From: Selaginella moellendorffii
Lineage: Eukaryota; Plantae; Lycopodiophyta
Length of the DNA: 64,000 bases
Direction of reading: 5' to 3'
NCBI RefSeq assembly: GCF_000143415.4
Contig: NW_003314297.1
Coordinates: 1,291,388 to 1,355,387, forward strand
Part shown: in pieces, positions 1,357 to 46,643 of the stretch
How the letters are laid out: the number at the start of each line of letters is the position of its first letter
Position numbering within the stretch: the first letter of the stretch is position 1
Notes under the pieces: model-generated
What the model was told of the DNA's origin: nothing
The model's input: only the letters and a program-made list of their open reading frames with translations
Databases searched by the model: none
Made by a program: the position numbers and the translations under genes

Positions 1357-1438
1357 CACTGGGCACCTTCCATTTTAGGGTTCTTCGCTCCAAGGAAAGG
1401 GTTTAAGGGGTTTAAGACAGAAATGTTTTAGGGTCTTC

Positions 1439-3087: not shown

Positions 3088-3115
3088 AGAAGCAGCTCGT
3101 CCAGCAAACCAAAGC

Positions 3116-4507
3116 TTATCTTCGCTCCTTGAAGAACGGGTGTCTTAGAGCTTCTTTCGCTGTCAGCCGATCGGAGGCTCCATATCTAAGGAGACCCTCG
3201 AGCAAGTCTGTCAAGGAACTGGCAGAGTGCTCGACATGCAGTTGTACAAGCTCCTATTGAGGGAAAAACACAGACATGAACGGGAAGGAGTTTTTATTTT
3301 TCAATGTGTACACTACCTTGAGCCGTGGTAACCTTTTCACTGTCCGGATACTCTCGAGAGAAGAGGCTGCATCGGGCCAGTTTAGTTCCCTCCCGTTTTT
3401 GAAGTACTTCTGAGCTTTTCTACTGTAGAAAGCACCGTGGGATGAGCCACAAGGTTTATAGATCCAGTACAAATCCGACTTACTCTACGTTATCGATTAT
3501 GCGTCTGGGAATGGGACCGAGAATTCTTTCCATCATTGCCAGGTGCTCGAGATTTTCGTGAGTCTGAAACAATGGATCTCCCTGGAAGCAGCCAAGAAAT
3601 ATGAGATTAATGGACTTTGCAGTTTTCTTACCGAGAAAAGCTCCACTAAGATGCAACCAACGCTCCACAAATCACACGCGTACGACCATCCAAGGCCTAG
3701 AAAATATGTATTGTCAAGATAACACTTAAGCAAAAGAAACACCCAACGTACCCAGGATGATCTCGGGTGCTCTATATTGCCTTGTAGACACTATGGACGA
3801 GTGGTGCTGGTTTTCAAACGTCGCACTCCCAAAATCTATCAGCCTTATTTCAGCTGATGTCGGTGTCCTGGTTAAGTGTTTATCCAGTCGAGCAGACTGT
3901 AACGGAAAAAGTGTTAATATTACTAGAAACGATCTAACAAAATGCACTACCTTGTAGTCGAGTGTCTTCACGTATGCCGAAGAGACCAGCAGTATGTTCT
4001 CCGGTTTTAAATCAGTATGAATCAAAGATAGCTCATGTAAGTCTATTAAAACAGGAAGCAAACAACAGTGCATCAATAACACGGGAGCTATAAACGAAAA
4101 CATCAAACGCGGCATACATGCTACAGAATTCAAAAGCTGCCAGCCGACATGTTCTATCGAGAATGGCCGGTAGCTATTCTTTTTCAGGAAATCGTACAGG
4201 CTTGGTCCAAGCTTTTCCGACACCTAAGTTCGCCAGTAAGTTTAGATGATGGTAAGGAAAATAAAATAAAATCGAGAAACTTACGATGCAGACATGATTC
4301 CGGTAATCGAACCACTCTTTCATCTGAAGACAGCCACTGCAAACAAAGGCTAAGAACTTTATGATGCTTAGTTGCAAGCTTTACCGTTTGCCATTCTTGT
4401 CATGCTTTTGAAGTGCTTTTAGAACGTCAATTTCAATCAGAGTGGCTTCTCTGTATTTTGGGACGTTTCTTATAACTTTAATGGCCACAAACTCCTGATA
4501 CTTCCGG
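3116..4507 (-). pseudogene. AFC/LAMMER kinase, 5'-truncated duplicate
   Basis: [21 protein letters not shown] and [11 protein letters not shown] are present. Homology to the intact copy stops at 4507, so the start exons and Gly-rich loop are missing. It also has a 9-bp deletion (EHV-GWQ vs EHVRDIGWQ). Confidence 0.85.
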
Positions 4508-4769
4508 CTTTGATTTACTACTAAATTGCTCTCTATGGACTTCGAAGTTCCTACCATGAGTATAATTCCTTCTTTAGTTTACTTCAAATTTGTGTCATTG
4601 AAACTTTTTCTTCTAGGTTTACTAGAAGACGTGGAAGAAAAGGAGGTGGATGGCCTTTCATCCAATTTTAGTGATTCGAACTGTGATTCAGGTGTGGATA
4701 ATGATAATGATGCTCTCCTAAAGGTTTGTTTAGTTTCCAGTCTCTTAGATTCATGATTTGCGATATTTC

Positions 4770-5795
4770 TAGGCCTTCTATAATTTTTTGCGATTGAGGG
4801 GATTTAGTAGTCCAGCTGCATTTAGCACCTAGATACACCTAAAGATCCTCAAGACTAAGACTATTGTTTACCTTGCATGCTATCTTAGAATTTCCAAGCC
4901 AACACTGTACAAATACATGTGGCTTGTTGATCCAAATTGGAGAAGTGTATATTACAGAGTACCACCTGAAAAGGTACTTTATCACATTCAGACTAACAAT
5001 GCCATGAATCGAGGTGGCACAAATTGAGGGATTATCAATTCTTTATCTAGTTGTCAAACTAGAGGATATTAGTTTAGCTGACACCAAATTTGTCAAGCCT
5101 TAACCACTCACAATCTAACTAGGCTGGAATAGAGGCACATGACAAGGATTTGACGATGGATTTATAAGAATGAGAAGGTTTATACACTTTGCTATATGGA
5201 TTGTGAGTATTCTTTCATTTTTGCTTTTTTGTCAGCATATGTGGTAACATGTTTATTGTAGTATATTGCAAGCTTGTAAGCTATGGTTTCTATGTATATG
5301 CCATTATTTGTAGGGCAACTCATTATATTGTAGCTTGTGAGCTAGCTACCTCCAAAGAATCCCATGCAATATTCAACATATGTGCGTAGGCTGTTTGTCA
5401 ATTTGGAAGGCTCAAGCGCATTCGGAGCAACAATGCTTTAGAGCACAATGAGGTTGAGAGGGACATGATTTGCTGTTTTCGTCCTGTAGCTAAGAGCTTC
5501 ATACGTGGGACATCAACACGTAACTAGGTACTCACAATGTTAGAGTTTTTTCAAATAAAAACTAAATCAAATTTGTTTTACAGCACATAGTGCATTTGTG
5601 GAGAGAGTTCTTTGAGTGCATGGTATGGTTTTATAAGCACCTTTTTAGTCCATGGAAGACATAGAAATTCTCAATGTATCTAATCCATGGCACAACTAGA
5701 GTCTACATTGTGTCTTTGCTCCGCACCTCAAGAAGGATATTTCACACTGGGTTGCAACCTAGAACTTCTATGATGTCCGTCCGTATCAATGTGGT
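4770..5795 (+). pseudogene. Integrase-like (rve/IS3-IS481-type) DDE transposase remnant with introns
   Basis: HTH YLACYLRISKPTLYKYM; then LCYMD|(intron 5203-5261)YCKLVSYGFYVYAIICRATHYIV...AVCQFGRLKRIRSNNALEH...FIRGTSTRN*|(intron 5528-5583)HIVHLWREF...FYKHLF...LHCVFAPHL. This is colinear with the recalled family consensus WHxDGxHKL..RSDxGxEN..HNQRIERLWRD..LHxVF. Confidence 0.8.
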
Positions 5796-8082
5796 AATTA
5801 TTTTAGACCATCTTATGTTCTTGCAAATTTATTTCAACTGATGGAACGAGAGCTTGGGTAAAAATTTTCGTAATGTTACAGAATTCTTTATAAATTATGC
5901 TTTTGTAAGATTATATCGGCTGTTGGTGAAAAAGATATTGAAGACATACCGGGACCTTTTCTCTCCAATGTTGAAGGTGCAACTCTGTCAAAGGTAATCT
6001 TTAGAGCAAGAATAGAACAATTTCTTTTAATCTATTTCATTGTGCTTGGCTACCTTATAAGCTCTTGGCACTGTTTAAAACCAAGCATTTTTTATGCATC
6101 GGGAGGGACTCAATTTGGATGAGTAATATTTACTTTATTTGGATCTAACAATGGAGTGTGCAATGGCTAATATTACGGGTGTAAATCTACCACTACATCG
6201 AGAGTGCTTTGCTTACAGCAACACCAGTGAAGCGACGAGCTTTGGAAAAATTATACTTGGCCATACTCGGAGAAAATTGAGTGTTCTTTAGTGTACATTT
6301 CAAATTTAAATTTAATTCTTGATTTCCTCAATTTTAGGGTTCCCACATTCGGGATTAGGGTTTACACCAAGTCCCAAATGTGCCTTGGATACAAGGCAAT
6401 TTCATTTTATGACATGATTTTGTCGATGGTTTGTTCATTTTTCCAATCGATTCGCATCATCTAATCAGAGGCAAGGCTTCTAGTGCACACTCCCCTAATT
6501 GCAAGACCACCACCCAAGCAAGAGCGCCACAGCTACGATGGTGGGTAGCTTCTCCTCGATTAGGTTTGCATAACCAATCCCTTGTGGTTTCCATGCTCGA
6601 AGGAAGAACATTGCACGCCTCAACAGTAGTAGACACTATGCAGGAAACACTTCAGAAGCATGCACCCAAGCACTTGATGTTCTGCAATCAGTACAGCCAA
6701 CAATCTCGTGAGACACACGCTAGCCACTTGATTTTCCAAACTCCGCAGCAGGGACATCAACTCCAACAACATCCCATCCACAGCTCCTGACTGCATTTGA
6801 GCAAGCAGAGTGCCACCTAACATTGCATACACTGCAACATATATGGAACCTCCAACATGTTTCGTTCTCTTCACCTTCCTTGGAAAGCAGCAGCCTAAGC
6901 ATCTGAAATGAGCAAGTCCGAATGCCTCATGCCCATGGTGTTATTCAATCTGGAATGCTACCACCAACACCAACTACAAGACGTGCTCACGGAAGCCCAT
7001 ATAGTGCCACTACTACCAGCCCCACAACTCCACTAGCCACTACAATTCTCGCAACTCCATCTACCAATACAAGTGCTAGTATCTGGCCATCTACCTCCCG
7101 AAGCAACAAGCAGTCTAGTTCGGTAAGTTTTTCATTTATACCCGTCTTTTTTCCATGTGTTTTTCTGAGTAGGGTGAGTTGGCAATGCCACCACACCAGC
7201 GAGCTCATAGTTCCCCATCAGCATTCCACAACTACTCCCAAAGATCAACATCATCATCTAGTGGAGCTTCGATATCTAGATATATTCAAAGTAAACCCTC
7301 AGGGGGGGTTGCCATGTGAGACACAGGTATACATGACCTTATGCACTCTTCAAATTTTTTTTCTTTAGATTTGTTTGACTCATTTTTGTTTCACTGTGCT
7401 AGACTCTCTCACCGCTTGTAGCTGCATTGCACACCTATACCGATAACAATCGACAGTCTTTATTTTGTCATCGTGGATGTCATGGCAGTCGATCCAAAGT
7501 CATTGGTGGAATGTCTTCTATGACACCCTTGGTCGCTCAGCTGTTCACCACAGTCTTTGTCACCAAGTGGATTGCAATCCCGAAGACTTGGCATGTACAC
7601 TTGTATAGGTAGAAAAAAGAGCCATCTATGAAGGTGACGAAACTTGATGAGCTAGCAGTGGACCTCCAAGAGTGTCTTATATGAGATGGCTTATACTCCA
7701 GTATTCGTTTCCAACCCGGCACGGCCCAACATGTGATTCTACTATTACTTCAAGCCTCAGGAATCCAACCTTAATCCATGAACAACCTAGGAGCATTTGT
7801 CTGGTGTGCAAGGCAATCCAATAGTGGTGAGGCCTATGCCGAGTCTGCAAAATTTGGCCTCAACTCTATCCGGCCTTGCTACTGGACTCCTCAAACATCA
7901 TAGGGAGCTATAGCAAACAAGGCCAATGGCAACTGGGCAATAGTAATATACCTATACAATGTTATGGAACATCTTATTGACAAACATTGGCTAAGTTATC
8001 AAAAGCAAGCCTGAGCACTCGAGGAGAAGGATGTTCATGAATGTAAGTCATTATTTTTTTTAAGTTCCCTCATAAATATATG

Positions 8083-10701
8083 TTATAGTCTTTGCAGTTG
8101 TGGCTGCTACAAATATCTTGACTGCAAATGATGATCCCTTGGTGATAGAGCCATTTCTCCCAAGGCTAACCACGTAGGAACCAAACCAAGATGAGATTAA
8201 TGAAGAAGAAGACTCTACGGATGAAGAGGACATTCTTCCATTATCAAAAGAAACTCTCCCCACATAAGACAATATGAACATCACTGAAGTAAAAGAACAA
8301 GGTGATGGTGGGGATGAACCACACTAAGGATCTCTAGAAACATCCTTGTCACCAGAGATAGTGGCTCTATGCCATGTGGCTAGTAAGAAGCATTAACATA
8401 AATGAATATTTCCTTCATTTTCTAATTTTTGAGTGCAGATAGGCCAATGGTAGTGTATGACAGTGACGGTAGAGGCCTTGAAGACCATGGTGTGCCTCCA
8501 CCCCCCTTTCTAGAGGGAAGTAGCTCCACTCCACTTACTCTTATGGAGTTGCTTGACAACTTTTCCACAGTAGAGTAAGATAATTGAAAATTGTGCTATT
8601 CGAAATTGAACTAATGTTTACATGTAAATTATTGGAGTGTCAACAACGATGGATTGATGCCACCAATGCATTTAATAAAGTTATTCAGTTAACCACTCAG
8701 AATAGTGCCAACTTCATCATGTTGCAGCATGAGGAGGTTTCTGCCTTACAGGATACCAGCATAGCCCTTGAGGTGAGGGCATAAAGGGATGTTAAAGTTC
8801 TTTCACAGGTGCAATGGTTGAAACACAAGCTTTTTGGTTGCTTTAGCATAGAGAGCACAAGTGACAAGGAGATGCTAGATGTTGTTACTAGACACTCTAA
8901 GTTCCATTGGGCTAGAGGTGAAATATTTTTTCGGCGCGTGCTTTTTAGCCAAGCCATGCCTCATTAGTAGAATTGAGAGAGTGTTCTCCTTAAGCTTGGC
9001 CTTTTAAAAGCATAGTATGAGGGTGTGTTTTGTGATAACACAATCTCCTTACTAAAGGAAGCATCAATATGCCTCCTTCAATTGTTGAGTTCACAATAGC
9101 ATGGTTTATTGAAAAGAGGTACGTGTATTTATTTTTTAGCATTTAGTACCATCTTATTGTTTTGTGCAGGGACCTACGTAGGAATTGGGTGGATGCACAA
9201 CAATTGAGAGAATTATTTGACACTGCTGAAACACTATATTGTAAGTTCTCCCATTTCTGCATCGAAAAGGCCATGCTTTGGCCATGCTTCGGCCATACAG
9301 ACTTGCTCATACACATTTGAGGCCATTTCACATTTTAGTAAGCAATGGATTGCCTATGAATTGGAGTTCCCTCACTTGTCCTTCCGGATTGCACCAAACA
9401 ATGAATTCAGTTGTTTCCACTTCGCCTTCAATACTAATCTCCACACACCAAATTACAAAGTGGTCTATGCATCTGAGATTGGAGGAGCTTTGGTGTGGGA
9501 AGAAGCCATAATAGATGTAGATGAGCCACATGCAAAAGCCATTAGGGAGGTTGTTCACCAGATTCCAGGATTGGTAAGTGTAATTTTTACTTAGCTCACT
9601 ATAGTAACTTTGTGTTACAGATGCATGGACTGTTTGTGCTTAGGGAAGGAGCCATGTATTGGCATCCCAGGATGCCAGTGCATTCTAAGATGTTGCAACA
9701 AGAAAAGTGGGATATGGTAAATCACAAGTTTTATATGCCTCTCATTTCTATATGCATAGGCTGTCTTTGTGGGCTAGTTGCATTCAAATGTAATACACAG
9801 GTGTCTTGCGGGTGTACAATTGCAACATTGGCAATTGCAGTTGGAGAGGTTCCAAATGAAAATGACTGACAACTTGCCTGAGGAAGATTATATGAGATGG
9901 ACCTCAAAGCATGCACGCCGCATATTTAGAATCCACTCAACCAATTGTGAGGTGCATCAAGCGTAAAGGAGGAGGGCAATCGGCACAAGTCTATAGATTC
10001 CATTCTAGAGAACTTTGCAATTACCAACTACAACACAATGCTTGAGTCTAGACTCACTAAACTTGGTGAAGGTTATGAGTAGGCTGTGGAGGCATGTATG
10101 GCTGCAGTGGTCTGGCGTTACCTATTCATCAAGCCAAACGTAATGGGAGACTTACTTTGAGATGGCTTCCAACACTCAATGTGTATGGAAACTTGTTAGA
10201 GGCTTTACAAGAGTCCAGTATTGCTAGGTGGGCTTTCACTCATTGGGACAGATGCTTTGTTACAGGTCTTCTGGGTAAGGACAATCATTCCTCCTACGGA
10301 GTTCATCAACTGTCTGATCTTTGATCAGGACTTTGGAGAGAACTTCCGCAGCTAGATTGTGGATATCATCCAAGGTAACTATTTACTTTCACAAACAACT
10401 AAAACTTTTGTATATTTGAACATTTTATAGATATAAGCTCGAAAGAGTTATCCAAGTTCCTTGATAAGGAGATCCTATTTGGTACATCATCTACTCAATT
10501 TCCCAGATTCTCCACATGCACACGAGAAGTTTTCTTCCCTTTAACATACCCGTTAATGGAGTAGACCAAACACAAGATCCATCAGGCACTCCAAAATCTA
10601 GAGAGCTTGTATGGATTGGGCTGATGTTGTGGAAGTACTATAATCGAGACACTTTCACAATAAAAATAGATAATTGTCTTGAAGTATGTTTCACACTTTG
10701 A
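8083..10701 (+). pseudogene. HECT-like E3 ubiquitin ligase remnant, copy 1 (transposon cargo)
   Basis: Exons give EEAIIDVDEPHAKAIREVVHQI, GLFVLREGAMYWHP, AVFVG*L, YEMDLKACTPHI, ELSKF, and C-terminal PKSR(fs)ACMDW(fs)LMLWKYYNRDTFTIKIDNCLE, in HECT motif order. Confidence 0.65.
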
Positions 10702-10919
10702 AAGAGACTCTTTCTAGTTCATTGGTGAAATTAAAGGTAAGAATATTCAAAATATTCTACAAATACCCATTATAGGCACTTGTGGCCCTTGGTACCCTTT
10801 TGGCTTATGCTTGTCTCACCAAAGGTAGCTTCCAAAGCAACTCCCAATTTAAGATCTGGGTCAAAACTATCAAGCTTGGGTGTTATATAATGCCTATCCT
10901 CACTTGAGGAACTCTCAAC

Positions 10920-11332
10920 TTATTTCATGGTAAAACCAAAATCATCCAGGTTTGTGAACTCGTCCTCTCTTGCATCTCGAGCAGTAATATATCCCTCGCT
11001 GTCGCTTTCTTTAACAGGACCTTTCCCCCCGGCGATTGGTACAACATTAGATGGAGTCTGAGGCTGCCTTGTCAGAGGGATTCTCAAGCCTTGAGAAGAG
11101 TAGGCATTATATAGAATCCTTGGTCCTATCCCCTGTTGGATCCATTGTTGTGCCTCAAAGAAGTCATAGAATCCTCTCCAATTTGCCATGCCAAGAGGAA
11201 ACCCAAAAACCTCAAACATTGCAAAAGGGTTAGAGTATATAGGAAACTATCACAAATTTACTTTTACCAAAGTGATCACAAGCTTCCAATCCCTGAAAAC
11301 TCCAGTTCTTCAGCCGTAAAACACAGCATATA
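10920..11332 (-). pseudogene. RNase H1 N-terminal hybrid-binding (Cauli_VI-type) domain gene, copy 1, cut by an LTR
   Basis: Two exons: YAVFYG*RTGVFRDWKLVITL|VFGFPLGMANWRGFYDFFEAQQWI. Matches YAVxxGRxxGxxxxWxxxxxxVxGFxxAxxKxFxxxxEAxxW. Confidence 0.75.
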
Positions 11333-12848
11333 TGTAAGCTCCTGAGTTTAGACTTCCTGGGATGTCACCTAGCCCAGTACTATTCAAGCCCAAAGACGCT
11401 TAACCCCAACTATCCCAAAACCCTTAACCGATTGGAAAAGGGGGTGCACTCTTGTTCATGGGCCCTTTCCCTCTATATTTGAACCCCTATGGATCGTCTC
11501 TCGAATCGTTCCCTTTGGTTGCTTACAATCCATCACGCTTCCCTGCAAGTTCAAGCCCTCGTGAACGGAAGCTGAAAGCCGCAGCTCTCCCGAGAGCCCC
11601 GCTCTCTTGACACCCTACCCCTCGGGTCGAGCCCAGCGGGAGCAAACTGGACTAGCCAGATGTCAATCAACATATGGTGTGATTCCCTTAAGCCAACCAA
11701 CAGATTTGGACCTGAGACCGCTCCAATACCAAGTGGTATCGGAGCCAGGGACCGAGACCGGGACCGAGACCGAGACCAAGGCCGAGGCCGAGACTGAGCC
11801 CAAGCCCGAGTCCAAGTCCTAGTCCGAGTCTGAGTCCGAGTCCGAGTCTGAGAGGGTGAAAGCCCAAAGCGTTTGTCTCCCAGACCCTAGGGGGTTTGGT
11901 GAGCTCCAAAAGTATAGTAGGGGGAGGACTGCAGTGGAGCTAGTTTAGCCAGGAAAGGCCAGTTTGGCCCAGGAAGGCTGTACCCAGTGTTGGGTGATGA
12001 GCTGCCCACTGGGAAGTCCAAGACTAGAGTGAACACGAACCGACAAGCAGGGTAGCTTGGTGAACTATTCAAGAGCTAGCTCTAGTTCCCCCGGGAAATC
12101 GACTGGCCGATGCTCCCAGTCCAAGTGTGGGTGGCACTACCTACTTGGATACCTAGCATGGCTCAATGAAACCTTGCTCTAAGCCCATGGCTAGAGCACC
12201 TAAAGGTAGAAGGTGGGGAGAGTACCCATGAGGCTCGCGTAAGGCCATGGTGTTTTGAAGTGTTGTCCCAAAGTCCCAGATGGTGAAAAGGAAGAAGAGC
12301 AATCGTCTAGTGTAGTGACCAAGGATATGGTCACAGGGTGAGGAAGTCCCGAAGGACAGTGGGACTTAGAGGTCGGGTCTGCGAGCCTTCATCCAGTGGC
12401 AGTGTTGGCGAACACGGCCATCGATAGAAAAGGGACTTGGTGGGGACCGGAAAAGAGATGCTGGGGAAGGCTATTCCCCATGTCTGTGAGCATCCTAAAG
12501 ATGCTAAGGAGTGGATCTGGGTTGATCACTCATGGATGGATGGCCTAGTCTTTGAGAGACAGGACTGTGATGCAGGTGGTGTTAGACCACCAGTGCGACC
12601 AATGTAAATGGGCATGGCCTTAGCATAACGGGCTGAGAGGTCGGTGGTACCTTGGGGTGTCGATCATGGGATCGGACATGTGGAGCACTTGGAGCAAGTG
12701 CAAAGGTTGAGTGGCATGGATGCCATTCTCGGGGCTAGCAAGCCCCAAGTCTTGAATGGGACTTATGGAGGTTGTGAATGAGACTCCTCCAAGTGGTCGA
12801 AGATGCGGTTAAGTGACTAAAGTAGAATGGAAAAATTAATCGCTTACA
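11333..12848 (+). mobile_element. Solo LTR (1516 bp) of a Ty3/gypsy family, TGTAAGC...GCTTACA
   Basis: 7-bp terminal inverted repeat with TG..CA ends. Shares the hexamer array, the agcccaaag and tccaaaagtatagtag blocks and the 3' end (gcttaca) with the LTR at ~37375-38409, which is followed by a PBS and gag. Confidence 0.8.
11749..11851. repeat. Degenerate hexamer array (CCGAGA/CCGAGT) inside LTR
   Basis: gaccga gaccgg gaccga ... gtccga gtctga repeats. Confidence 0.9.
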
Positions 12849-15500
12849 TTATAGTTGCTACAAATATCTTGACTACAAATGATGGTCCCTTGGTGATAGA
12901 GCCATTTCTCCCGAGGCTAGCCATGCATGAGCTAAACCAAGATGAGATTAATGAAGAAGAAGACTCTGTAGATGAAGAGGATATTCTTCCATTACCGGAA
13001 GAACTCTCCCCGCACAAGACAACATGAACATCACCAGAATCGAAGAACAAAGTGATGGTGGGGATGAACTGCACTAAGGATCTCCAGAGACATCGTTGTC
13101 ACCAAAGATAGTGGCTCCAGACCATGCGGCTGGTAATAAGTATTAACATAAATGAATATTTCCTTCATTTTCTAATTTCTGGGTGCAGATAGGCCAATGG
13201 TAGTGTATAACAGTGACGGTAGAGGCCTTGAAGACCATGGTGTGCCTCCACCCCCCTTTCTAGAGGGAAGTAGCTCCACTCCACTTACTCTTATGGAGTT
13301 GCTTGACAACTTTTCCACAGTAGAGTAAGATAATTGAAAATTGTGCTATTCGAAATTGAACTAATGTTTACATGTAAATTGTTGGAGTGTCAACAACGAT
13401 GGATTGATGCCACCAATGCATTTAATAAAGTTATTCAGTTAACCACTCATGATAGTGCCAACTTCATCATGCTACAACATGAGGAGGTTTCTGCCTTACA
13501 AGATGCCAGCACAACCCTTGAGGTGAGGGCACAAGAGGATGCTAAAGTTTTCTCACGGGTGCAATGGCTGAAACACAAGCTTTTTGGTTGCTTTAGCATA
13601 GAGAGCACAAGCGATGAGGAGATGTTAGACGCTGTTGCTAAACACCCTAAGTTCCATTAAACTAGCAGTGAAATATTTTTTCGGTGCGTGCTTTCCAGCC
13701 AAGCCATACTTCATTGGCAGGATTGGAAGAGTGTTCTGTTTAAACTTGGCCTTTCAGAAGTATAGTACAAGGGTGTGTTTTGTGACAACACAATCTAACA
13801 GCTCCTTATTGAAAGAAGCATCAATGTGCCTCCTTCAATTGTTGAGTCTATAATAGCATGGTTCATTGAAAAGAGGTACGTATATCTAGTTTTTAGCACT
13901 TAGTACCATCTTATTGTTTTGTGTAGGGACCTACGTAGGAATTGGGTGGATGCACAACAATTGAGAGAATTATTTGACACTGCTGAAACACTGTATTATA
14001 AATTCTCCCATTTTTGCATCGAGAAAGCCATGTTTCGGCCATACAAACTTGTTCGTACACGTTTGAGGCCATCTCACATTCTAGTAAGCAATGGATTGCC
14101 TATGAATTGGATTTCCCTCACTTATCCTTCCAGATTGCACCAAACAATGAATTCAGTTGTTTCCAATTCGCCTTCAATACTAATCTCCACACACTAAATT
14201 ACAAAGTGGTCTATATGTCTTAGATTGAAGGAGCTTTGGTGTGGGAGGAAGCCACAATAAAAGCAGGTGGGCCACATGCAAAAACCATTAGGGAGGCTGT
14301 TCACCAGATTCCAGGATCGGTAAGTGTAATTTTCATTTGGCTCACTAAAGTAACTTTGTGTTACAGATGCGTGGACTGTTTGTGCTTAGGGAAGGAGCTA
14401 TGTATTGGCATCCCAAGATGCCAGTGCATTCTAGGACATTGTGACAAAAAGAGTGGGATGTGGTAAGTTAATTTAAAGCACAAGTTTTATATGCTCCTCA
14501 TTTCTATATGCACAGGTTGTCTTTGTGGGCTAGTTGTTATTCCAAGTGTTCAAATGTAATGTACAAGTATCTTGCGGGTGTACAATTGCAACTGGAGAGG
14601 TTCTAGACAAGAATGACCGACGACTTGCCCGAGGAGGACTATATGAGATGGACCTCAAGGCATGCACACCGCATATTTGGAATGCACTCAACCAATTGCG
14701 AGGTGCATCAAGCCTAAAGGAAGAGGGCGATCGGCACAAGCTTGTGGATTCCATCCTAGAGAAATCTGCAATTACCAACTACAATGCAGTGCTTGAGTCT
14801 AGATTCACTAAACTTGGTGAAGGTTATGAGTAGGTTGTGGAGGCATGCGTGGCTATAATGGTCTGGCATTACCTATTCATCGAGCCAAATGTAGTGGGAG
14901 ATTTACTCTAAGATGGCTTCCAACACTCAATGTGCATGGAAGCTTGTTAAAGGCCTTACAAGAGTCCAGCATTGCTAAATGGGCTTTCACTCATTGGAAC
15001 AGATGTTTTGTTACAAATGTTTTGGGTGAGGACGATCATTTGTCCTGTAGAGTTCATCAACTACTTGATCTTTGATAAGGACTTTGGAGAGAACTTTCGC
15101 AGTTGGATTGTGGACATCATAGTGAGGTAACTATTTACTTTCACAAACAACTAAAACTCTTGTATGTTTGAACATTTTATAGATATAAGCCCAAAAGAGT
15201 TATCCAAGTTCCATCACTTTGTGGTTGATTCTCTACAGTTCTGATAGGGAGAGCCTATTTGGATCCAAGTTAAGAGACAGGGTACATCATCTGCTTGATT
15301 TCCTAGATTCTCCATATGCACACAAGAAGTTTCTTCCCTTTAACATACCTATTAATAGAGTGGACCAAACACAAGATCCACTAGGCACTCCAAAATCTAG
15401 AGAGCTTGTATGGATTGGGCTGATGTTGTGGAAGTACTATAATCGAGACACTTTCACAATAAAAATAGATAATTGTCTTGAAGTATGTTTCACACTTTGA
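12849..15500 (+). pseudogene. HECT-like E3 ligase remnant, copy 2
   Basis: EEATIKAGGPHAKTIREAVHQI, VVFVG*LLFQVF, LYEMDLKACTPHIWNALNQL, LL*DGFQ, FRSWIVDII, YKPKELSKFHHFVVDS; putative catalytic Cys codon TGT at 15407-15409 in a shifted frame. Confidence 0.68.
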
Positions 15501-15719
15501 AAGAGACTCTTTCTAGTTCATTGGTGAAATTAAAGGTAAGAATATTCAAAATATTCTACAAATACCCATTATAGGCACTTGTGGCCCTTGGTACCCTTTT
15601 GGCTTATGCTTGTCTCACCAAAGGTAGCTTCCAAAGCAACTCCCAATTTAAGATCTGGGTCAAAATTATCAAGCTTGGGTGCTATATGATGCCCATCCTC
15701 ACTTGAGGAACTCTCAGCC

Positions 15720-16153
15720 TATTTCATGGTAGAACCAAAATCATCCTCTGGGTCTATGAACTCATCTTCACTTGCATCTTGAGCAGTGATATATCCCTCA
15801 CTGTCGCTTTCTTCAACAAGACCTTTCCTTTCAGTGATTGGCACAACATTAGATGCAATCTTAGGCTGCCTTGTTGGAGGGATTGTCAAGCCTTGAGAGG
15901 AGTAGGCATCATATAAAATCCTCGATCCTGTCCCCTGTTGGATCCATTGTTGTGCCTCAAAGAAGTCATAGAATCCTCTCTAGTTTGCCATACCAAGAGG
16001 AAACCTAGAAACCTCAAACATTGCAAAAGGGTTAAAGCATATAGGAAACTATCACAAATTTACTTTTACTAAAGTGATCACAAGCTTCTAATCCCTGAAA
16101 ACTCCAATTCTTTAGCTGCAGCACACAACATACATTGGATAGTTTTGCCCCAT
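15720..16153 (-). pseudogene. RNase H1 HBD gene, copy 2 (retains ATG)
   Basis: MGQNYPMYVVCCS*RIGVFRD*KLVITL|V.RFPLGMAN*RGFYDFFEAQQWIQQG. Confidence 0.7.
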
Positions 16154-17134
16154 GCTTGGAAACCCTTTTTACAAATTTCAAAATTTGAAATGGTTATGAT
16201 TGGAAAATGTTAAAAGTGTCCATTGTTATCGCTTTTCATGTTACTGCATGCAATTGCAACTTCCATATTTTCAAATCTCCTTTAACATGCTCCTTTTGAG
16301 AGAACTCTAGGTCCAAACATTAACACTATACACCTTTGTGTAGTACATAATTGAAATATAAGCCCCACCAATTCATGGAATTGGTTAGACTTCAACTTAA
16401 TTTTGAGTCATATGCAAATCTTCTAAGCATCATGGTACAAAACTAAAGCATTGAGAGAGCTACACTAGAAATTAATGGCAACGAAGGATAAACTCAATGG
16501 GATGCATTAGAGATATGATTCCAAACAGTATATATCCATGGCTTTGCAATGGGGCTAGATGGAGTTCACTTATGCTTGCTATGAACACTATGTTAAAAGA
16601 GGTGTGCTAAAAAAGGATAATTCAATTTTTTTGCCAAGAGCAAAAAGCTCTAGATAAGGTAGTATAATATGCAATTTGGCCGATTGTCCATTTGGTTTGC
16701 AACATTAACAACTTGCTAGAATGCATGGGATGAATGGGTCTATTGAATGGGTCTATTGAATGGCTCCATTCTATACATAGCATGGGTCATTGCTATGGGC
16801 ATGATGCCCCATCTGGGGCATAAGGATTGGATATTTGTAAAATATTTTATGCTTGTGTTTTTTTCACACTCATAATACACATGGACCAATAGCAGGCATA
16901 CACATGGTGTGAGTGAAATCTGCCACAGTAACCCTTTTACGAATTGCACGCCATACATTTCTCTAGTGGAATGGAATCGCGAAATTTCTCACGGCTACTC
17001 GGACTCCACGTCACTGTCCAGATCACCGCAATGTCCTGCAATGGCACTGCCACGCGGCATCATGTGAGTGACGTGTTTGGAACACGTGTCAATCATGTAT
17101 CCTCCTCGCGCCGCGGGGGGCTTATGAATGCCAG

Positions 17135-17398: not shown

Positions 17399-20300
17399 AG
17401 ACACAAATGTTTTAGTTCTTCATGCTCGTCCTGGGCAGCCGATTTCTTCGTCCCGGTCTTCGTTTACAGTGCGGATCTGGTCCTCAGCATCGGCATTGCA
17501 TTGCGACTGCGGTGAGTTTGAGATACGGCTCGCCCGCTTTCGATTGATCTCGTCTCTCTGATCGGCGAGCATGGTTTCCAATCCATTTGTGTGGACTCCA
17601 AATTTTATTCCAGTGGAACACGACGACAATTCAGAGTTTCCAGAGAGTAAGAAGAGAGAACGAAGAAAACGATCGCATTGTCACGAAATTTGATTTTGCA
17701 GCTGGAAGCTTTCGAGTGGTTTCATACAACATTCTTGCACAAGTAGTGATTTAAATCTTTTTTCTTAGCTTTGATCGATCGAAACGTTTTGTGTTCTTGT
17801 TCTTTTGCAGGTCTATGTGAAGAGTTCGCTGTTCCCTCATTCGCCATCCTTGTGTTTGAAGTAAGTTTCTCATCATTTTCTTGTCAAGTTTTTGCATCGC
17901 CGAGCATTTCTTTCGAAGGTGGGAGACGCGCTCGGAGCAAGTTCTATCGCGTCTTTTGTCTCTAGACGCTGATCTCCTTTGTCTCCAGGTTTGCGTTCGT
18001 TTATTCTATAGGCTCAAAGCCTCCCTCTTCGTTTTCTTTGCAGGAGCTAGACGAATTTGAGAGCTTCTACAAGCCTCTCCTTGAAAGCAAAGGCTACTCT
18101 AGCATCTACATACAGAGAAGTGGCAACAGACGCGATGGCTGCGGCATCATCTACAAGCCCGAACGGTTAGCCTCGGATTGATTTTGCGAGCTTTGTTTGA
18201 TATTTCATTCTACTCAGGTGCCAGCTGCTAAAACAACAGTTTCTCGACTATAACGACATCGCGCCTGATGAAACCACAGCCGGAAGAGCGTCGGAATCCG
18301 TCGGTATAAATCCACACACGCCAATGTATTGTTTCTGATTTTCTCACTTCCAGAGGAAGAGAACGACAGAGATGTGAGCGATCCACGCGTGCGCTTTCGA
18401 AGGAACTGTGTTGGAATTCTTTCGGCCTTTCGCTTCAATCACGCGCCTAGCAACATCGTTGTGATTGCAAACACGCACCTATACTGGTAAGATAGTTCTG
18501 CCGAGTTCTTCTTTATATCCTTTTTCTTTCCCAGGGATCCAGCGCTGCAAGACGTGAAGCTCGCACAAGCCAAGTACCTGCTTGCAAAGCTCTCGCAGTT
18601 CGAGAAGGAGATATCTCAAGAATTCAACTCCAATCCTGTCGTTCTAGTCGCAGGGGATTTCAACTCCACTCCAGGTGATCGGGTAAAGTGTTTCATTCAA
18701 AGCTTGGAAAATGGAACAAACTTTTATGCCGTCTTCTCTCTTCTCAGGTGTACAACTATATCACCTCCGGGCGTCGCAACTCCGGCCCCGACGTCGAGCT
18801 CTCGAGTTTCAAGGTGCCCGACTTGGAGAGCTTGAAAGTCCCAGCGATCCCACTCGACAGCCTGTACGCTGCTGTACAAGGCGAGCCAGCGTTGACGAAC
18901 TGGAGCCCGAATTTCAAAGGAACACTGGACTACATCTTCTTCAGTCCCTCGGCGTCCATGAGACCAAAAACGATCTTAGAGGTGCCTCCAGACGTCGAGG
19001 AAGGCCTCCCAAACCATTTCCACCCCAGCGATCATCTTCCCATAGGAGCGGACTTCAGCCTCTCGTGAAGCAGCAGCTCGTCCAGCGAACCAAAGCTTAT
19101 CTTCGCTCCTTGAAGAACGGGTGTCTTAGAGCTTCTTTCGCTGTCAGCCGATCGGAGGCTCCATATCTAAGGAGACCCTCGAGCAAGTCTGTCAAGGAAC
19201 TGGCAGAGTGCTCGACATGCAGTTGTACAAGCTCCTATTGAGGGAAAAACACAGACATGAACGGGAAGGAGTTTTTATTTTTCAATGTGTACACTACCTT
19301 GAGCCGTGGTAACCTTTTCACTGTCCGGATACTCTCGAGAGAAGAGGCTGCATCGGGCCAGTTTAGTTCCCTCCCGTTTTTGAAGTACTTCTGAGCTTTT
19401 CTACTGCACAAAGCACCGTGGAAGGTTTACAGATCCAGTAGAAATCCGACTTACTCTACGTTATCGATTATGCGTCTGGGAATGGGACCGAGAATTCTTT
19501 CCATCATTGCAAGGTGCTCGAGATTTTCGTGAGTCTGAAACAGTGGATCTCCCTGGAAGCAGCCAAGAAATATAAGATTGGAATCAATGGACTTTGCAGT
19601 TTTCTTACCGAGAAAAGCTCCACTAAGATGCAACCAACGCTCCACAAATCACACGCGTACGACCATCCAAGGCCTAGAAAATATGTTTTGTCAAGATAAC
19701 ACTTAAGCAAAGGAAACAGCCAACGTACCCAGGATGATCTCGGGTGCTCTATATTGCCTTGTCGACACTATGGACGAGTGGTGCTGGTTTTCAAACGTCG
19801 CACTCCCAAAATCTATCAGCCTTATTTCAGCTGATGTCGGTGTCCTGGTTAAATGTTTATCCGGTCGAGCAGACTGTAACGGAAAAAGTGTTAATATTAC
19901 TAGAAACGATCTAACAAAATGCACTACCTTGTAGTCGAGTGTCTTCACGTATGCCGAAGAGACCAGCAGTATGTTCTCCGGTTTTAAATCAGTATGAATC
20001 AAAGATAGCTCATGTAAGTCTATTAAAACAGGAAGCAAACAACAGTGCATCAATAACACGGGAGCTATAAACGAAAACATCAAACGCGGCATACATGCTA
20101 CAGAATTCAAAAGCTGCCAGCCAATATCACGGACATGTTCTATCGAGAATGGCCGGTAGCTATTCTTTTTCAGGAAATCGTACAGGCTCGGCCCAAGCTT
20201 TTCCGACACCTAAGTTCGCCAGTAAGTTTAGATGATGGTAGGAAAACAAAAAAAAATCGAGAAACTTACGATGCAGACGTGATTCCGGTAATCGAACCAC

Positions 20301-20493
20301 TCTTTCATCTGAAGACAGCCACTGCAAACGAAGGCTTTAAGAACTTTATGATGCTTAGTTGCGAGCTTACCGTTTGCCATTCTTGTCATGCTTTCGAAGT
20401 GCTCTTAGAACGTCGATTTCAATCAGAGCGGCTTCTCTGTATTTTGGGACGTTTCTTATAACTTTAACGGCCACAAACTCCTGATACTTCCGG
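17399..20493. repeat. ~3.1 kb direct repeat, copy B
   Basis: Matches 1415-4507. Confidence 0.95.
17422..19068 (+). CDS. CCR4: CCR4-family EEP deadenylase, copy 2 (diverged)
   Basis: Same exon structure and catalytic motifs as copy 1. Differences include LTNWSPNFKGTLDYIF, a 12-bp deletion, and IQRSGNRRDG..KPER. Confidence 0.82.
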
Positions 20494-29461: not shown

Positions 29462-32400
29462 TCACGAGAAGTCGGCATCAGCAGGAAAAGCGACGCCTTG
29501 GATGGGATCAAGTTGGCGTAAATTAGAGCTGGCTCCTGTCGTCCGCCTCCTGTGAAGTTCACACAAACACAGACAGAGAAAGTAGCTTGTTTTGTGAGCA
29601 ACACAGTACCAGGGAGGTAACCAAAGGCACAGGTGCTTTTCTCCCTTTTGACTTACCGTTTCGAGTGCCGTGACAGATGAATAGATTGCTGGCCTGGCCG
29701 CGGACGAGTACTGCTTCAGCTTTGCAGAAAGAAGTGTCACCAGGTCCTTCATCATGGCCATCTGCAAATTATTGTACTGCTCCACGTCCTACATCGCGGC
29801 ACACAACACAAGCACCCGAGTTAAAACTTAAAAAGAGGCGAGGTCCATGGCCGTGGAAGAAGAGACTGGGCGTGGGCTGAGCTTTCTTCCTAGACTCGAC
29901 TACACAGGGAGGACAGAGTTTGATGTGTGTCACCTTCAGCCTTTGCTGCCGCTGCTCCAGCGTGAACTTCAACTCCTCCTGTCGCTGGAGCTCGTTACGG
30001 AGTCCGAGGCTGATTAGCGATCCCTGCTGCTCCTTGGAGACTGGACGTTAAAGGTTAAGACGCGAGGAGTTTAAGAGGAAAGAAAGCTGGCGCTTGCCTT
30101 CTTCCAAGGACGATTCCACGGCCTCGAGCTCTGCGCACTTGTCCTGGTACAGCTTGTTTTCCCGTGCAAACTCTCTCTGGACTGACTCCACTTCGTTTTG
30201 CAGCCTGCTTAGCTTCCTAAGAGACATCACCAGCACGCGACGAAACAAAAACTTAGAGGTCTTTACTCCACCGAGGAGGAAGAAGAAAAGGAAGAGACTT
30301 GGGATCCGACCTTTCATAGAGAGACGAGACTTCCAAGTGGTGGCGCTTCTTTTCCGCGTGGACGATCTCCAGGTCCTGCTTGGTCTTCCTCAGGCTCTGC
30401 AGGAGTTTGACCCTGGGGGCGACTTTCTCCTTGTTCTCCCGGAGCGACTCGTTGACCTCCGCCAGCAGCGAAGTCAACGTGCCGATGGCCTTGTCCAGCT
30501 CCTCGTCCCCGCCGCTCGACTCGAGCACGTCTTCCAGCATTCCTGTAACATTCCAGTTCGTGTAACATAGCTTTGGCTCTTGCCTTGTGAGTTTAGTTTG
30601 ATTTACCAGGAACGACGGGGTGTGGCATGGAGGAGGCCTGGTGCTGGAGAATTTGCAGCGTTCTTCGCAAGGCTCCAAACTCGGTGGCCATGTCGTCAGT
30701 CTCCTTTTTCATCGTCCTGTACGTGATGCTCTTCGCTCGCAGTGATTCCACAAACTGTTTGAGTTCTTCTCCTCGTAGAACTGTGCCTTTGACCTGAAAC
30801 AGATGAAACTAAGTTGGTAAAAAGAAAATCGAAATTGTAAACAAATAGAGAAAGATATTTGCCTCGTTGATAAAGTTGGTCTTTTGGGAGAAGTCGACTA
30901 TGAGTTGCTCTTTTCTTGCTGTGAGAGCCGTGACCTTGTCAAACGCTACTTTGAGCCTCTCGGCGACCAAAGCACTCTGCTGCCACTGCACAGAGTCGCC
31001 GTCGGGGGAGAGCTCGTTTCTCTTCTCCAGGCAGCTTCGTTTCCTCAGAGACTTGAGCTCGTTGTTTGCTGATACAAGCTTTGCCTGTGTCGAAAGAACC
31101 TCCATTGCAACAAAAAAGGATGAAAAAAACGAAGAGTACCTGAATTCGCGAGATTTTGTCATCGCTGTAGTTAGGATCATTCAAAACTTTGTCAAGAGCG
31201 TCTTTGTGTCGCTGTTTGTCTGCCAGCTCCTGAATAAGAGTTTGGAAGAGACAAGGTAAATCAACAGGAAAATGGAAGATATAAATCCCCCCACCTTTGG
31301 AAGTTTTGTGTCGGCGAGATAGCGTAGCATTGATATTTCCTGAGCAATTCTTTCGCTCATGAGCGGAGGTGGTGTGTTCACTAGGGCCTGCATGTACTCG
31401 AGCTTCAGCAGTGCTTTCCCGTGCTTCCCTGAGCGGCATATCGTTCCAATCAATCGACCAATTTGGAAGGAACTAGGAGGATGATTTAAATTTCTACCTG
31501 ACTCGGCAGCTAAAGCTCGCTTTTGTTCCTTTACATTGTTCGCCAAGTTCGTCTCATCCAGCTTTTCGACCCTGTGTTGCTCAACCAATGCAAGGATTTG
31601 ATCGAGCTTTGCTACATGCTGGCCAAAACCAAACAAAGCACAATCTAGCAGCAGGAGAAAGAGGGAAAAGAAACCAGATGCGAACGACTTACTTGGAGCT
31701 TGGCTCGCAGTTTGGAGACTTTTGTAGACAGGTGTTCTTTCTCGGCTTCTAGTTTGTGGACGTTTTCTCGCAAAGAGACCACGTCTTTCTCCGTCTGCGC
31801 CTCCTGGAGGCTTTGCAGCCGGCAATAGTTGGCTTTGAAATGGTCCCTCAGAGCTCCGCACTGCGCTTGCAAGATGTTGCAGTCCTCGTCCAAGAGAAGC
31901 TCTCCAGGAATCTCCACTTCGTTTAGAAATTGTGACAAGTATACGTGCTTCTTAAACACCACAATCTAGAAAACAATAACCAAGCAGCCACCAGCAAAAA
32001 GAAGTCAGAGTATGAGAAAGGAAGAAACAAAACTCACTTTGCATTACTGTTTAGATGGAAAATGACCTGAGGAAGCAGCCATGAGAGCAAAGGATAAATC
32101 ACGTCTCTGCTCCCGGAAGATAAACCTTGACGAAATGATATCCTGCATTAGTGGAGCGATTGAATCCAAGCGAAAAGAGTAGAAAACAATATTTTCTTCT
32201 TACGCATCCATGTTGGGGAAATAATAGGAGCGCAAGAGCTCCATCATGCAAGCAGTGGACGCCTCTAGCCCATTGCTCTCCAAGCATTTCTTCTGGAAGA
32301 AGAATGAATCGATAGGCATTTAGATGGATGCGTTACCTGGCTGGGACTGATGTAGCTCAAAACGCGGACAAGTAGCTGCCGCAGCTGCTGGGGACTCTTT

Positions 32401-39130: not shown

Positions 39131-39169
39131 GAGTGACAAATTTTTCCATTTTACTTTAGTCACTTAACC

Positions 39170-42573: not shown

Positions 42574-43214
42574 TATGGCATGTTATTTATAAAATGGTGT
42601 TGCATGAAAAATACCATACTGTGCAATATTGCATTTGCCAAGTGGCAACATTTGATTGGTCTATCATAACCATATTTCTATTATAAACATCCAATGGGCA
42701 TCCAATGTGATCAGATTTCCATACATGTCTATTATGCACATCCCAGTACATGTCTACTCATCCTTTGATTAGTGTCTGGTGAGGCCTACTTGTTGTTGTG
42801 TAGGGCACTATGGTGGAGTCTAGATCCATGGGTATTGGTACTAAAAAATCTAGGGCAATAACAAGGTAATTTATATTTAAAATAGTTAGATGGTTTTATT
42901 TTCTTTTGATGACAGGATTTGTAAGGAGGTTTTGACATATAGCATACATAATGAAGCTTAAGAAACATGAGTAAATTTCTATTGTCAATTTCAAACTTCT
43001 TTATTATAGATAACGACATTTTTTTGCTTGAGATTTTCGTTAGGTCTCATAGAAGAGCAAGATGGTATAAGTGGACAGTCTATCCCATATGATTTAGACT
43101 CTTCTTGAACATTTGAGAGTGATAACAAAGAGCAATACACAGAGGTATATAATTTCATGTTTAGAGTAAATTATTAAATATATGATTATAAGAATTCTAA
43201 CATTCCTTGGTTTC

Positions 43215-43805
43215 TAGATGTTTTAGCAATCCAATTGCTTTTTATTTGTGGATGCATTTGTGAGACCAAGACAATGGATTACTTAGCATCATATTTACAG
43301 ATTTCAAATCTAACATTGTATAAATATATGAGGTTCATTGATGTAAATTGAAGAGTAAGATACCATCATTAGAGGTGTTTCATCATATCCTCACTAACAT
43401 TGCCATGAGTCACAGTGATACAGATTGTAAATGGCCACTCAAGTTGTCAATATTATTTTAGTCAATGTCAAATTTGCAAAGCTTTAGCTATACAAGACCT
43501 TATAAGGCTCACTTTAAACTTATTTCTGTCATGCTTTACTCTAGCAGCATAATGTAAACTAGTATCATATGGATTTTATGTCCATGCTATGATTTGTGGT
43601 GCTACACATAACATCATCTTTTACGAGTTATCAACTACAAAGCAGTAATATGTAATTTTTAACATTTATGCACATGTTGTTTATAAATTTTGCTATCCAA
43701 AATAGATTAGAAGCAATCACACACTAAAGGCCAACGATGTGGAGAGTAGAATATAGACCTCCCAAGCTTCACCTTTTATCAGTGGCACTTCAACACAAAA
43801 CCAAA
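43215..43805 (+). pseudogene. Integrase-like DDE transposase remnant, copy B
   Basis: KTMDYLASYLQISNLTLYKYMRFID, FHHILTNIAM, CKLVSYGFYVHAMICGATHNII, YPK*IRSN, FISGTSTQNQ; homologous to 4770-5530. Confidence 0.82.
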
Positions 43806-44384
43806 TACAAAATATCTACTCAAATCTTTTTAAATTTTAAATTTCTTATATATATATATACACACACACACATTTTATTTTTTTCACAGCATAATCAGAG
43901 CATTAAGAAATAAAGATATTGAACTCTTGCTTAGATCATTTCTATGCAGTGTTGAAGGTGTTACTTTGCCACAAGTATTTAGTTTTATCTTTTTTGTGAT
44001 GTTCCCTATGTTAAGAATTTCTTTGTTTTGAACAACACATAACAACAATCCAGAATCAAGCATTTTCACTCTATTATACTAGGCGAAATCTAGATGAATA
44101 ATACCTTTTACTCTTGAATTTATTAATATTATGTGCACTAGCAAATATAAAAAGACATCCCACTCATAGACTACATTGCAACAACACTATGTATGGCAAC
44201 TCTAGTCATTAGAAGAGCTCTTGAAAAGTTGCAAATGACCATTCTCCATCTAGCTTAGTTATGAATTCTTTAAAATTTATTTGTTCTTTAAGGTGTATTT
44301 TAATTTTAAGTAGTGGAATTCAAATGTTATCACCAACTATGTATTAATATTATTGATTCACAAATAAAATATAATAAAGCATAA

Positions 44385-44700
44385 TTATATTCCTAGATTG
44401 GGAGATTGGCAAGCATGAAGTATAGATTTGAGCAATGTGTTTAGAATCATATAGCAAATCATAGAAGGTAACAATCTTATCTGAAAAATATACATCCTAT
44501 AAACTAGTATGAGAGTTAAGTGGCCTTCACCACTTTTAACATACCTGAAAAGTATAGTGTTCCATGAAACATAGTCCCAAATACACGTATGAATGTTGTC
44601 CAAGCCCATGTATGTGTCCACAAAGCTTCTACATTTGGAATACATGTCAACTACACAGTTTGCGATATAAACATCTTATATAAACCTCCTTCAAGTGGCC
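44385..44700 (-). pseudogene. Decayed PPR fragment inside element B
   Basis: MYSKCRSFVDTY..LDNI....DYVSWNTILFRYVKSGEGHL. Confidence 0.65.
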
Positions 44701-45405
44701 TTGTAAATAATATGATTTACAAGAGGTATAACTATCTTCGAAACATAAACCTCTTTCAGGCAGCTTTATAAATAATATGATTTACAAGAGGTATAACTAT
44801 CTTCCAATCTCGATAAATTTCTGTCCTTCTTCTATACATAGCATATAGTGGGAAATTTTGGCCCATTCTTCCAAATAAAAATAATAATTAAGTATCTAAG
44901 CATTTTGAAATCTCAAATAGTTATATTAACTTCCCCATGAAACAATGGAATTCCATAAAATTTCTTGCACTGCTCTAGAATGAGCGTCCAATGTTATTGA
45001 TAGTTGAAATATATGAAGTTAATCACTTTATTTGAGCTCCTCAGCCCTTGCTAAATTGTAATAGTGCTCAAAAGCTTTAATCAATTGAAATTAGAAAAGG
45101 CACTAGGAATCAGGGAAAAAATTCAAGGCTTATAGTTAGAAATATTTTGAAACAATAAATGGGTCTAATTAAATGGTTATGGATGGATAAGGGGCCATTT
45201 ACATGGCCATGATCCCCACATAATGGCCATTAGATTCTAGGGAATATCCTTCAAAAATCTAATTCAATTTCATGCGTAATCAATTTCACATAAGGAATAT
45301 ACCGTTTCATATCCAATTTTATACGTAGATTATTCTACTAAATGCCCCATGGCTTGTTTTTAGTACAGTCTTTTTTCATGCCAACACCAGTTTACGAATA
45401 ACATA

Positions 45406-46643
45406 GTCTCCGTTGGGGGAGAGCTCGTTTCCGTTTTCTCAGAGATTTGAGCTCGTTGTTTGCTGATACAAGCTTTGCCTGTGTTGAAAGCACCTCCATT
45501 GCAACAAAGAAAAGGAACTCGCAAGATTTTGTCATCGTTGTAGTTGGGATCATTCAAAACTTTGTCGAGGGCGTCTGGTGTCGCTGTTTTTCTGCCAACT
45601 CCTGAAAAGAGCTTGCAAGAGACAGGGTAAATCAACAGGAATAGCGTAGCACTGATATTTCCTGAGCAATTCTTTCGCTCATGAGGGGAGGTGGTGTTCA
45701 CTAGGACCTGCATGTACTCGAGCTTGAGCAGTGCTTTCCCGTGCTTCCCTGCGCGGCATATTGTTCCAATCAATAGACCATTTTGAAAGGAACTTAGATC
45801 TCTACCTGACTCGGTAGCTAAAGCTCGCTTTGGTTCCTATACATCGTTTGCCAAGTTCATGGAGAAAGAGGACAAAGAAACCAGATGTGAACGACTTACT
45901 TGGAGCTTGGCTCGCAATTTGGAGACCTTTGTTGACATGTGTTCTTTCTCGGCTTCTAGTTTGTGGACGTTTTCTCGCAAAGAGACCACGTCTTTGTCCG
46001 TCTGCGCTTCCTGGAGGCTTTGCAGCCGGCAATAGTTGGCCTTGAAATGGTCCCTCAGAGCTCCGCATTGCACTTGCAAGATGTTGCAGCCCTCGTCCAA
46101 GAGAAGCTCTCCAGGAATCTCCACTTCACTTAGAAAGTGTGACAAGTATACGTGCTTCTTAAACACCACAATCTAGAAAACAATAGCCAAGCAGCCATCA
46201 GTAAAGTATGAGAAAGGAAGAAAACAAAACTCACTTTGCACTACTGTTTAGATGAAAAATGACCTGAGGAAGCAGCCATGAGAGCAAAGGATAAATCACG
46301 TCTCTGCTCCCGGAAGATAGACCTTGACGAAATGATATCCTGCATTAGGGGAGCTATTGAATCCAAGCGAAAAGAGTAGAAAAAAATATTTCCTTCTTAT
46401 GCATCCATGTTGGGGAAATAATATGAGCGCAAGAGCTCCATCATGCAAGCAGTGGACGCCTCTAGCCCATTGCTCTCCAACCATTTCTACTGGAAGAAGA
46501 ATGAATCAATAGGCATTTAGATGGATGAGTTACCTGGCTGGGACTGATGTAGCTCAAAACGCGGACAAGTAGCTGCCGCAGCTGCTGGGCTCTTTTGGCT
46601 GCTCAAGAAAAGAAACAAAAAAAGAATAATCTAGCAGTGATTC
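45406..46643 (-). pseudogene. IFT81 5'-half duplicate, exon 1 deleted, internal deletions
   Basis: Matches 30995-32448; lacks the MADVQ exon. Confidence 0.88.

Follow-up and report, generated by a model that had tools for sequence, protein, structure and literature searches.

A decayed, left-truncated GingerRoot/IS3EU transposon of Selaginella moellendorffii, with HECT-domain and hybrid-binding-domain genes as probable accessory genes

We analysed a window of 64,000 nucleotides from the lycophyte Selaginella moellendorffii (assembly GCF_000143415.4, contig NW_003314297.1, positions 1,291,388 to 1,355,387 of the forward strand; coordinates below are positions in this window) and found in it, at 4508-16955, a dead copy of a DNA transposon of the GingerRoot/IS3EU type that has lost its left end. 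Together with its relatives in the same genome, this copy points to a family layout in which a transposase gene, a HECT-domain gene and a gene encoding an RNase H1-type hybrid-binding domain (HBD) follow one another between two terminal inverted repeats (TIRs). The HECT and HBD genes are probably the element's own accessory genes, predicted to help it evade host control. The original prediction, made from the letters of the window alone, had proposed these three genes, and all of them are real according to Pfam, their paralogs and the ESM Atlas: an rva_4 transposase, a divergent HECT gene and a convergent HBD gene. The evidence at the level of the family comes from S. moellendorffii gene models, locus tags and contigs. 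The features of the window copy are the following, with the evidence in brackets.

4508..16955, plus strand: decayed GingerRoot/IS3EU element without its left end and with an internal doubling (observed/expected CpG, contig cover, left break against the host duplicate)
4617..6280, plus strand: multi-exon DDE transposase pseudogene with a helix-turn-helix (HTH) and an rva_4 core, frameshifts and stops (Pfam; tblastn with paralogs P0004 and P0002; codons)
6520..10624, plus strand: HECT-domain gene copy A, 5' extent uncertain (tblastn; Pfam on paralogs; Atlas; hhalign)
10770..11332, minus strand: HBD gene copy A, first codons removed by a long terminal repeat (LTR) (Cauli_VI above cut-off; translation; tblastn with P0017)
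11333..12848, no strand given: high-copy solo LTR (TGTAAGC...GCTTACA), outside the family layout (depth ~100-1000 times that of the element; ends)
12849..15423, plus strand: HECT-domain gene copy B, 5'-truncated at the LTR (87% to copy A; tblastn)
15569..16153, minus strand: HBD gene copy B, ATG to stop, ~180 codons, acidic tail (tblastn with P0017 and P0018)
16908..16955, minus strand: right terminus and TIR (TATGGCGTG... on the minus strand), inner limit not fixed (depth drop, varied flanks)

The transposase is recognised by the Pfam profile rva_4 (PF24764), which matches at 5264-5527 (E 8.7e-6, 26 bits for a cut-off of 26) and a second time at 5634-5834 (E 2e-6), and which is at or above its cut-off in P0002 and P0004 too. 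From a proposed check against the rve, HECT and Cauli_VI profiles, rva_4 and Cauli_VI came out at or above their cut-offs; rve on the window transposase and HECT on a paralog (P0001) stayed under theirs, and HTH matches were weak. All the motifs that had first been read in the transposase were recovered in the same order, and by eye its core closely resembles the DDE query that PMC6839031 gives for GingerRoot. The first catalytic Asp is retained in the window copy, the second is changed to Asn and the Glu to Val; P0002 and P0004 retain the catalytic residues. The gene stops at 6278-6280, and its C-terminal RRALEKL is common to a diverged sister element described below. The termini are of the TA..TA type (TAYGG..CCRTA), the right end reading CGCCATA and the sister element starting with TATGG. 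A Gypsy LTR retrotransposon or a Ginger1 element was considered and rejected: the ends are TA and not TG..CA, the sole LTR is an internal insertion, and neither P0002 nor P0004 has a reverse transcriptase or HHCC/GPY integrase Pfam match. Judged on its sequence, the gene encodes an integrase-like DDE transposase of the rva_4 type known from IS3EU/GingerRoot, and the earlier IS3EU-like assignment is borne out by the transposase and the TA termini.

For the second gene, the HECT call holds through the better-preserved paralog P0001, where the Pfam HECT profile gives E 2.2e-4 and 21.4 bits, under its cut-off of 23.9. In the ESM Atlas, residues 385-747 of P0001 obtained a HECT score of 0.95 with 200 shared features, 29 of 30 matches being HECT, and a TM of up to 0.61 over ~300 residues; whole P0004 gave no usable match there. 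Moreover, C713 of P0001 aligns with the catalytic H-T-C Cys of P0032, a strong HECT C-lobe (hhalign probability 99), and the codon for this Cys is present in both window copies. In copy A, the N-terminal part is low-complexity and acidic (no Pfam match on the exons at 6520-8041), the HECT domain occupies ~9390-10624 and an S-T-C motif lies at ~10511. The domain is whole, with its Cys and its C-terminal end, and these alignments argue for a divergent HECT gene with a bilobed domain of ~350 residues and a C-lobe Cys. Matched HECT columns contain 34 stop codons, and 24 of these replace Arg (TGA), Gln (TAG or TAA) or Trp (TAG), as expected from methylation decay.

The relatives of this gene are concentrated in one species. 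A phmmer search of 1.84 billion representatives returned 21 proteins at E ≤ 0.001. Nineteen are copies from S. moellendorffii, counting the query and both copies of the window, and the remaining two have 26-28% identity; a named host HECT ligase was absent from these 21 matches, and the named homologues returned were all S. moellendorffii gene models. Twenty further gene models of this species lie outside the window, and two models correspond to the window's own HECT copies. Of 26 candidate stretches from a metagenome scan, only one passed; it matched over 16 residues, at the end of a bacterial-looking, unrelated open reading frame, and was rejected.

The HBD call holds as well. Cauli_VI (PF01693) matches copy A at 11130-11336 on the minus strand with E 1.4e-4 and 22.4 bits, above the cut-off of 21, over model positions 3-20 of 44 only, and an in-frame intron interrupts the domain. 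The read of copy B had no Pfam match on its own. Among nine paralogous HBD models, which are mis-spliced, one is above the PF01693 cut-off and four are weak. The HECT and HBD genes converge, with their ends 146 bases apart, and the small HBD protein is predicted from its domain to bind RNA:DNA hybrids.

Then, we examined whether the three genes keep company elsewhere in the genome. By SELMODRAFT locus tag, 6 of the 9 HBD models adjoin one of the 20 non-window HECT models, a number that 0 of 100000 random draws reached. Two models, 424697 and 414985, each contain transposase and HECT-gene sequence; the HBD model 424696 adjoins 424697, and this locus (424696/424697) holds all three genes. Model 414985, which is P0002, reads in order the left repeat (IWHAIRKR), the transposase, HECT-gene sequence and the antisense of the end of the HBD gene. 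Its residues 72-79, IWHAIRKR, correspond to the left terminal repeat, the reverse complement of the right end reading VWRAIRKR (0 of 2000 shuffles). Such a reading order describes an element copy that has its left terminal repeat together with the three genes. In addition, contig depth, whose figures are not equal to copy number, is elevated alike over the transposase, HECT and HBD genes (e.g. 112-596 vs. 0-27 in run X3). Taken from gene models and contigs, the layout is a family trait in S. moellendorffii: terminal repeat, transposase, HECT, convergent HBD and terminal repeat, in ~8 kb. The window copy on its own, rearranged, holding a solo LTR and without a left end, could pass for a fortuitous cluster of repeats and pseudogenes, unrelated to one another, next to a transposase. 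However, the same gene order at several loci, the even depth over all three genes and the span of P0002 across repeat, transposase, HECT and HBD DNA make this explanation extremely improbable, and the co-occurrence of the genes at other loci leads us to reject it.

The boundaries of the window copy were less simple than first proposed. Inside 4508-16955, observed/expected CpG is 0.35 vs. 0.97 and 1.0 in the flanks, and contig cover is deeper across the whole interval. The right end, CGCCATA at 16955, was mapped by contig depth and varied flanks: summed depth drops at 16955/16956 from 117 to 6, from 807 to 34 and from 1118 to 87 (three runs of one sample; contigs from two samples), and the contigs that exit there carry flanks differing from the window's. 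It is a true terminus. In contrast, the left end predicted at 4508 is not a terminus but the breakpoint of a host segmental duplication (1415-4507 = 17399-20493, 96% identity), with no TATGGCGTG-like match; the only exact TATGGCGTG in the window is the right end, and the copy is left-truncated. A local scan of the window with three terminal sequences gave no further match to the main element's end, and no target-site duplication (TSD) is readable for the copy at 4508-16955. TIRs are absent on the left of the window copy, present in the sister element, and readable on the left in P0002.

Nor is the interval the one clean three-gene unit that had been proposed. The HECT and HBD block at 8105-11333 recurs at 12856-16135 with 87% identity, doubled around the solo LTR, and the left end is lost. 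Other copies of this LTR run on into a TGGTATC primer-binding site at 12848, and no clean TSD surrounds the copy at 11333-12848. Since a clean TSD is lacking, we lean towards an origin of the doubling by recombination between LTRs in two different element copies. Contigs splice the HBD gene of copy A directly onto the right-hand part (11011 to 15842, and 11311 to 16158), which fits an undoubled unit that would measure ~8 kb against the 12.4 kb of the interval. Between copies A and B, the tracts 8398-8697 and 10598-10797 show 97-100% identity, introns included, compared with 82-94% elsewhere, and represent either gene conversion or assembly collapse. The solo LTR (1.5 kb) also contains an internal TGGTATC primer-site-like motif at ~11735 and a repeat with a period of 12 bp, and related pieces lie at 37364-37685 and 39128-39180.

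A second, diverged element is present further along the window.

42574..45406, plus strand: diverged 2.8-kb sister element with a TATGG left end
30990..30995, plus strand: empty paralogous site ACAGAG, candidate 6-bp target of the sister element

Its imperfect inverted ends (42580-42620 and 45362-45404) match in 35 of 43 columns, a value reached in 0 of 1000 shuffles. It retains an rva_4 transposase remnant at ~43043-44255 and a convergent HBD start at 44866 on the minus strand. Its transposase is only ~58-61% identical to that of the main element, with the HBD gene retained at the same position. The left flank reads ACAAAA, the right end is short of ~10 bases and the empty site reads ACAGAG, which is compatible with a 6-bp TSD but does not prove one.

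Several observations weigh against a family layout with HECT and HBD as accessory genes. Firstly, Pfam gave no match on any of the nine window pieces of the HECT gene that were scanned, nor on the Cys-bearing piece, and even the best models score under the HECT cut-off. A phmmer search of PDB sequences with P0001 and with the HBD read gave no match, and a low-confidence, uninformative AlphaFold model of P0001 (16-row alignment) had a mean pLDDT of 43 and a pTM of 0.25, with no Foldseek match at E ≤ 0.001. Secondly, neighbouring locus tags stand in for physical adjacency and may include haplotype duplicates, and an intact copy bearing both ends and a TSD was not directly observed among gene models, locus tags and contigs. 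Thirdly, an HBD alone does not imply an anti-silencing activity, as in cauliflower mosaic virus (CaMV) P6, which carries a related domain and offers a weak analogy, a deletion overlapping the RNase H-like region left local silencing suppression intact (PMC3836500). Finally, the signs of selection are weak: the ratio of nonsynonymous to synonymous changes between copies A and B is 0.35 for HECT transversions (p 0.03, 20 changes), 0.76 for HECT transitions (p 0.06) and 0.75-0.88 for the HBD gene. The sister element has no clear HECT either (protein score reached by 293 of 2000 shuffles, no hidden Markov model match; nucleotide resemblance 3/300 for copy A and 38/300 for copy B), so that the HECT gene may be dispensable or subfamily-specific.

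The weak purifying signal and the sister element without a clear HECT would also suit an alternative in which both genes are passively captured host fragments (Pack-type), amplified with one successful founder and of no benefit to the element. GingerRoots do capture gene pieces: 22 of the 77 elements of Selaginella lepidophylla contain some, introns included (PMC6839031), and a single founder would likewise give a fixed layout. However, the published captures are fragments of 84-1654 bp with 79-98% identity to their parent (PMC6839031), whereas the HECT domain here is complete, Cys and C-terminal end included, and has no parent-like match among the 21 phmmer proteins. The HBD gene, moreover, holds the same position in a sister element with a transposase ~58-61% identical. 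Passive capture is unlikely.

Another possibility is that transposase and HECT form one fused protein, with the ligase travelling with the transpososome. The two genes are on the same strand, and the ab initio models 424697 and 414985 join them. However, these models splice out the conserved RRALEKL, which is stop-terminated in both diverged elements, and hold off-frame stretches; a word-limited search for long fused relatives gave only P0004 itself among 201 candidates. The fusion models, in which the RRALEKL motif is skipped, are likely artefacts, and we regard a fused protein as quite unlikely.

We favour HECT and HBD as separate accessory genes of the element. A counter-silencing role is suggested by analogous IS3EU elements of rust fungi, which share the three-gene layout and whose fixed accessory genes, encoding TET/JBP and an alpha-kinase, have been proposed to act against silencing (Kojima 2025, PMC12730594).

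How the products would act is more tentative. By analogy, the HECT ligase may mark element-restraining proteins while the HBD protein binds hybrids or double-stranded RNA at transcribed copies, a possibility to which we give somewhat less than even weight. In a HECT domain, a cysteine accepts ubiquitin from an E2, and the ubiquitin is then transferred to a substrate. Possible targets of the ligase are host silencing or chromatin factors, or the element's own transposase; the ligands of the HBD protein would be RNA:DNA hybrids or double-stranded RNA formed where copies are transcribed. The transposase would act on the TA-ended inverted repeats, leading to excision and to insertion with a 6-bp duplication, as in IS3EU/GingerRoot, where the DDE transposase binds the inverted ends, excises the element and inserts it with such a duplication (PMC6839031, PMC10045372). 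It is doubtful that HECT is an ancient core gene of IS3EU/GingerRoot, common to plant, animal and fungal members, and that in this lycophyte family it works with HBD to detect R-loops or double-stranded RNA of the element and to destroy the host silencing factors assembled there; if true, a DNA transposon would be countering host defence through targeted ubiquitination.

The element also bears on published annotations. The sequence 'SL-Gypsy-003', given in Supplementary File 1 of PMC6839031, agrees by eye with residues 159-254 of P0002 at all 96 positions, an off-frame read of a transposase exon included. Given this off-frame stretch, 'SL-Gypsy-003' is likely a mislabelled S. moellendorffii gene model of the window element's GingerRoot family, and not a Gypsy integrase. 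The grouping of some Gypsy elements with GingerRoot that is remarked on in PMC6839031 probably depends on this sequence, and its identity likely removes support for the suggestion, made in the same article, that Gypsy arose anew from GingerRoot in plants. About 30 'hypothetical proteins' of S. moellendorffii can be flagged as transposon debris. The family adds a transposon-borne HECT type absent from the counts of the plant HECT survey of PMC3712016, and its HECT and HBD cargo offers a possible route for a DNA transposon to act on host proteins.

Other repeats occupy the surroundings of the two elements. The segmental duplication 1415-4507/17399-20493 carries what we take, from motifs, to be a CCR4-like gene and a LAMMER/AFC-type kinase, and the first kinase copy is cut at the left break of the main element. 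Immediately left of the sister element, 41000-42460 is a further AT-rich, CpG-free stretch. At 53463-53471 on the minus strand, an end-like motif (TATGGCATGTG..TT..CAAAA) borders an AT-rich, CpG-free stretch and is possibly the end of another non-autonomous relative. Long, rearranged inverted repeats (33807-34338 and 48062-48826, ~14 kb apart) enclose the sister element together with a gene pair present in duplicate (35184-37145 = 39170-41099), and are flanked by direct repeats (30990-33781 = 45401-47773).

The element class is already known in lycophytes, contrary to the novelty that the original prediction implied: GingerRoot DNA transposons were described from S. lepidophylla (Cerbin et al. 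2019, PMC6839031), and GingerRoot and IS3EU form one lineage with 99% bootstrap (Kojima and Bao 2023, PMC10045372). IS3EU elements have TA..TA termini, usually a 6-bp TSD, and no HHCC motif (PMC10045372); their structure and function are called largely unexplored in PMC11934779. The HECT and HBD pair, in contrast, was not found in the literature searched. HECT is unmentioned in the texts of PMC6839031, PMC10045372, PMC12730594, PMC11934779, PMC10853768 and bioRxiv 2021.09.26.461848, and neither cargo gene is described for this element class in the publications covered; Repbase entries, GingerRoot tables S1-S7 and bioRxiv supplements may bear on this novelty.

Among known systems, the S. lepidophylla GingerRoots (average size 8.6-8.9 kb, TIRs of 100-150 bp; PMC6839031) share with the window element the genus, the DDE motif series, the TA termini, a similar size and methylation-type decay. 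Unlike it, they are described in PMC6839031 with only a transposase and captured host fragments; the main text of that article has no mention of HECT, ubiquitin, ligase, RNase H or moellendorffii, and its tables S1-S7 could name such fragments. The element also differs from IS3EU as presented in the text of PMC10045372, where no HECT, ubiquitin or HBD cargo is mentioned and which Repbase entries may complement. The HECT gene resembles plant HECT ligases in its fold and in the position of the catalytic Cys (PMC3712016). The survey of subfamilies I-VI in that article counts nine S. moellendorffii genes, with none under 'others' (Marin 2013); unlike these plant HECTs, the element gene has 20 further models and no named host HECT at E ≤ 0.001. 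The HBD gene is like the N-terminal HBD of RNase H1 and like CaMV P6 in its YAV..G..TGVF..W motif, above the PF01693 cut-off, and differs from both in encoding, as predicted, a stand-alone small protein with an acidic tail and without a nuclease domain. Finally, the rust-fungus IS3EU have TET/JBP and alpha-kinase as accessory genes rather than HECT and HBD, and HECT is absent from the text and supplement of PMC12730594; like the S. moellendorffii family, they combine TAYGG..CCRTA ends with three genes: the transposase, an accessory gene in the middle and a terminal gene in convergent orientation.

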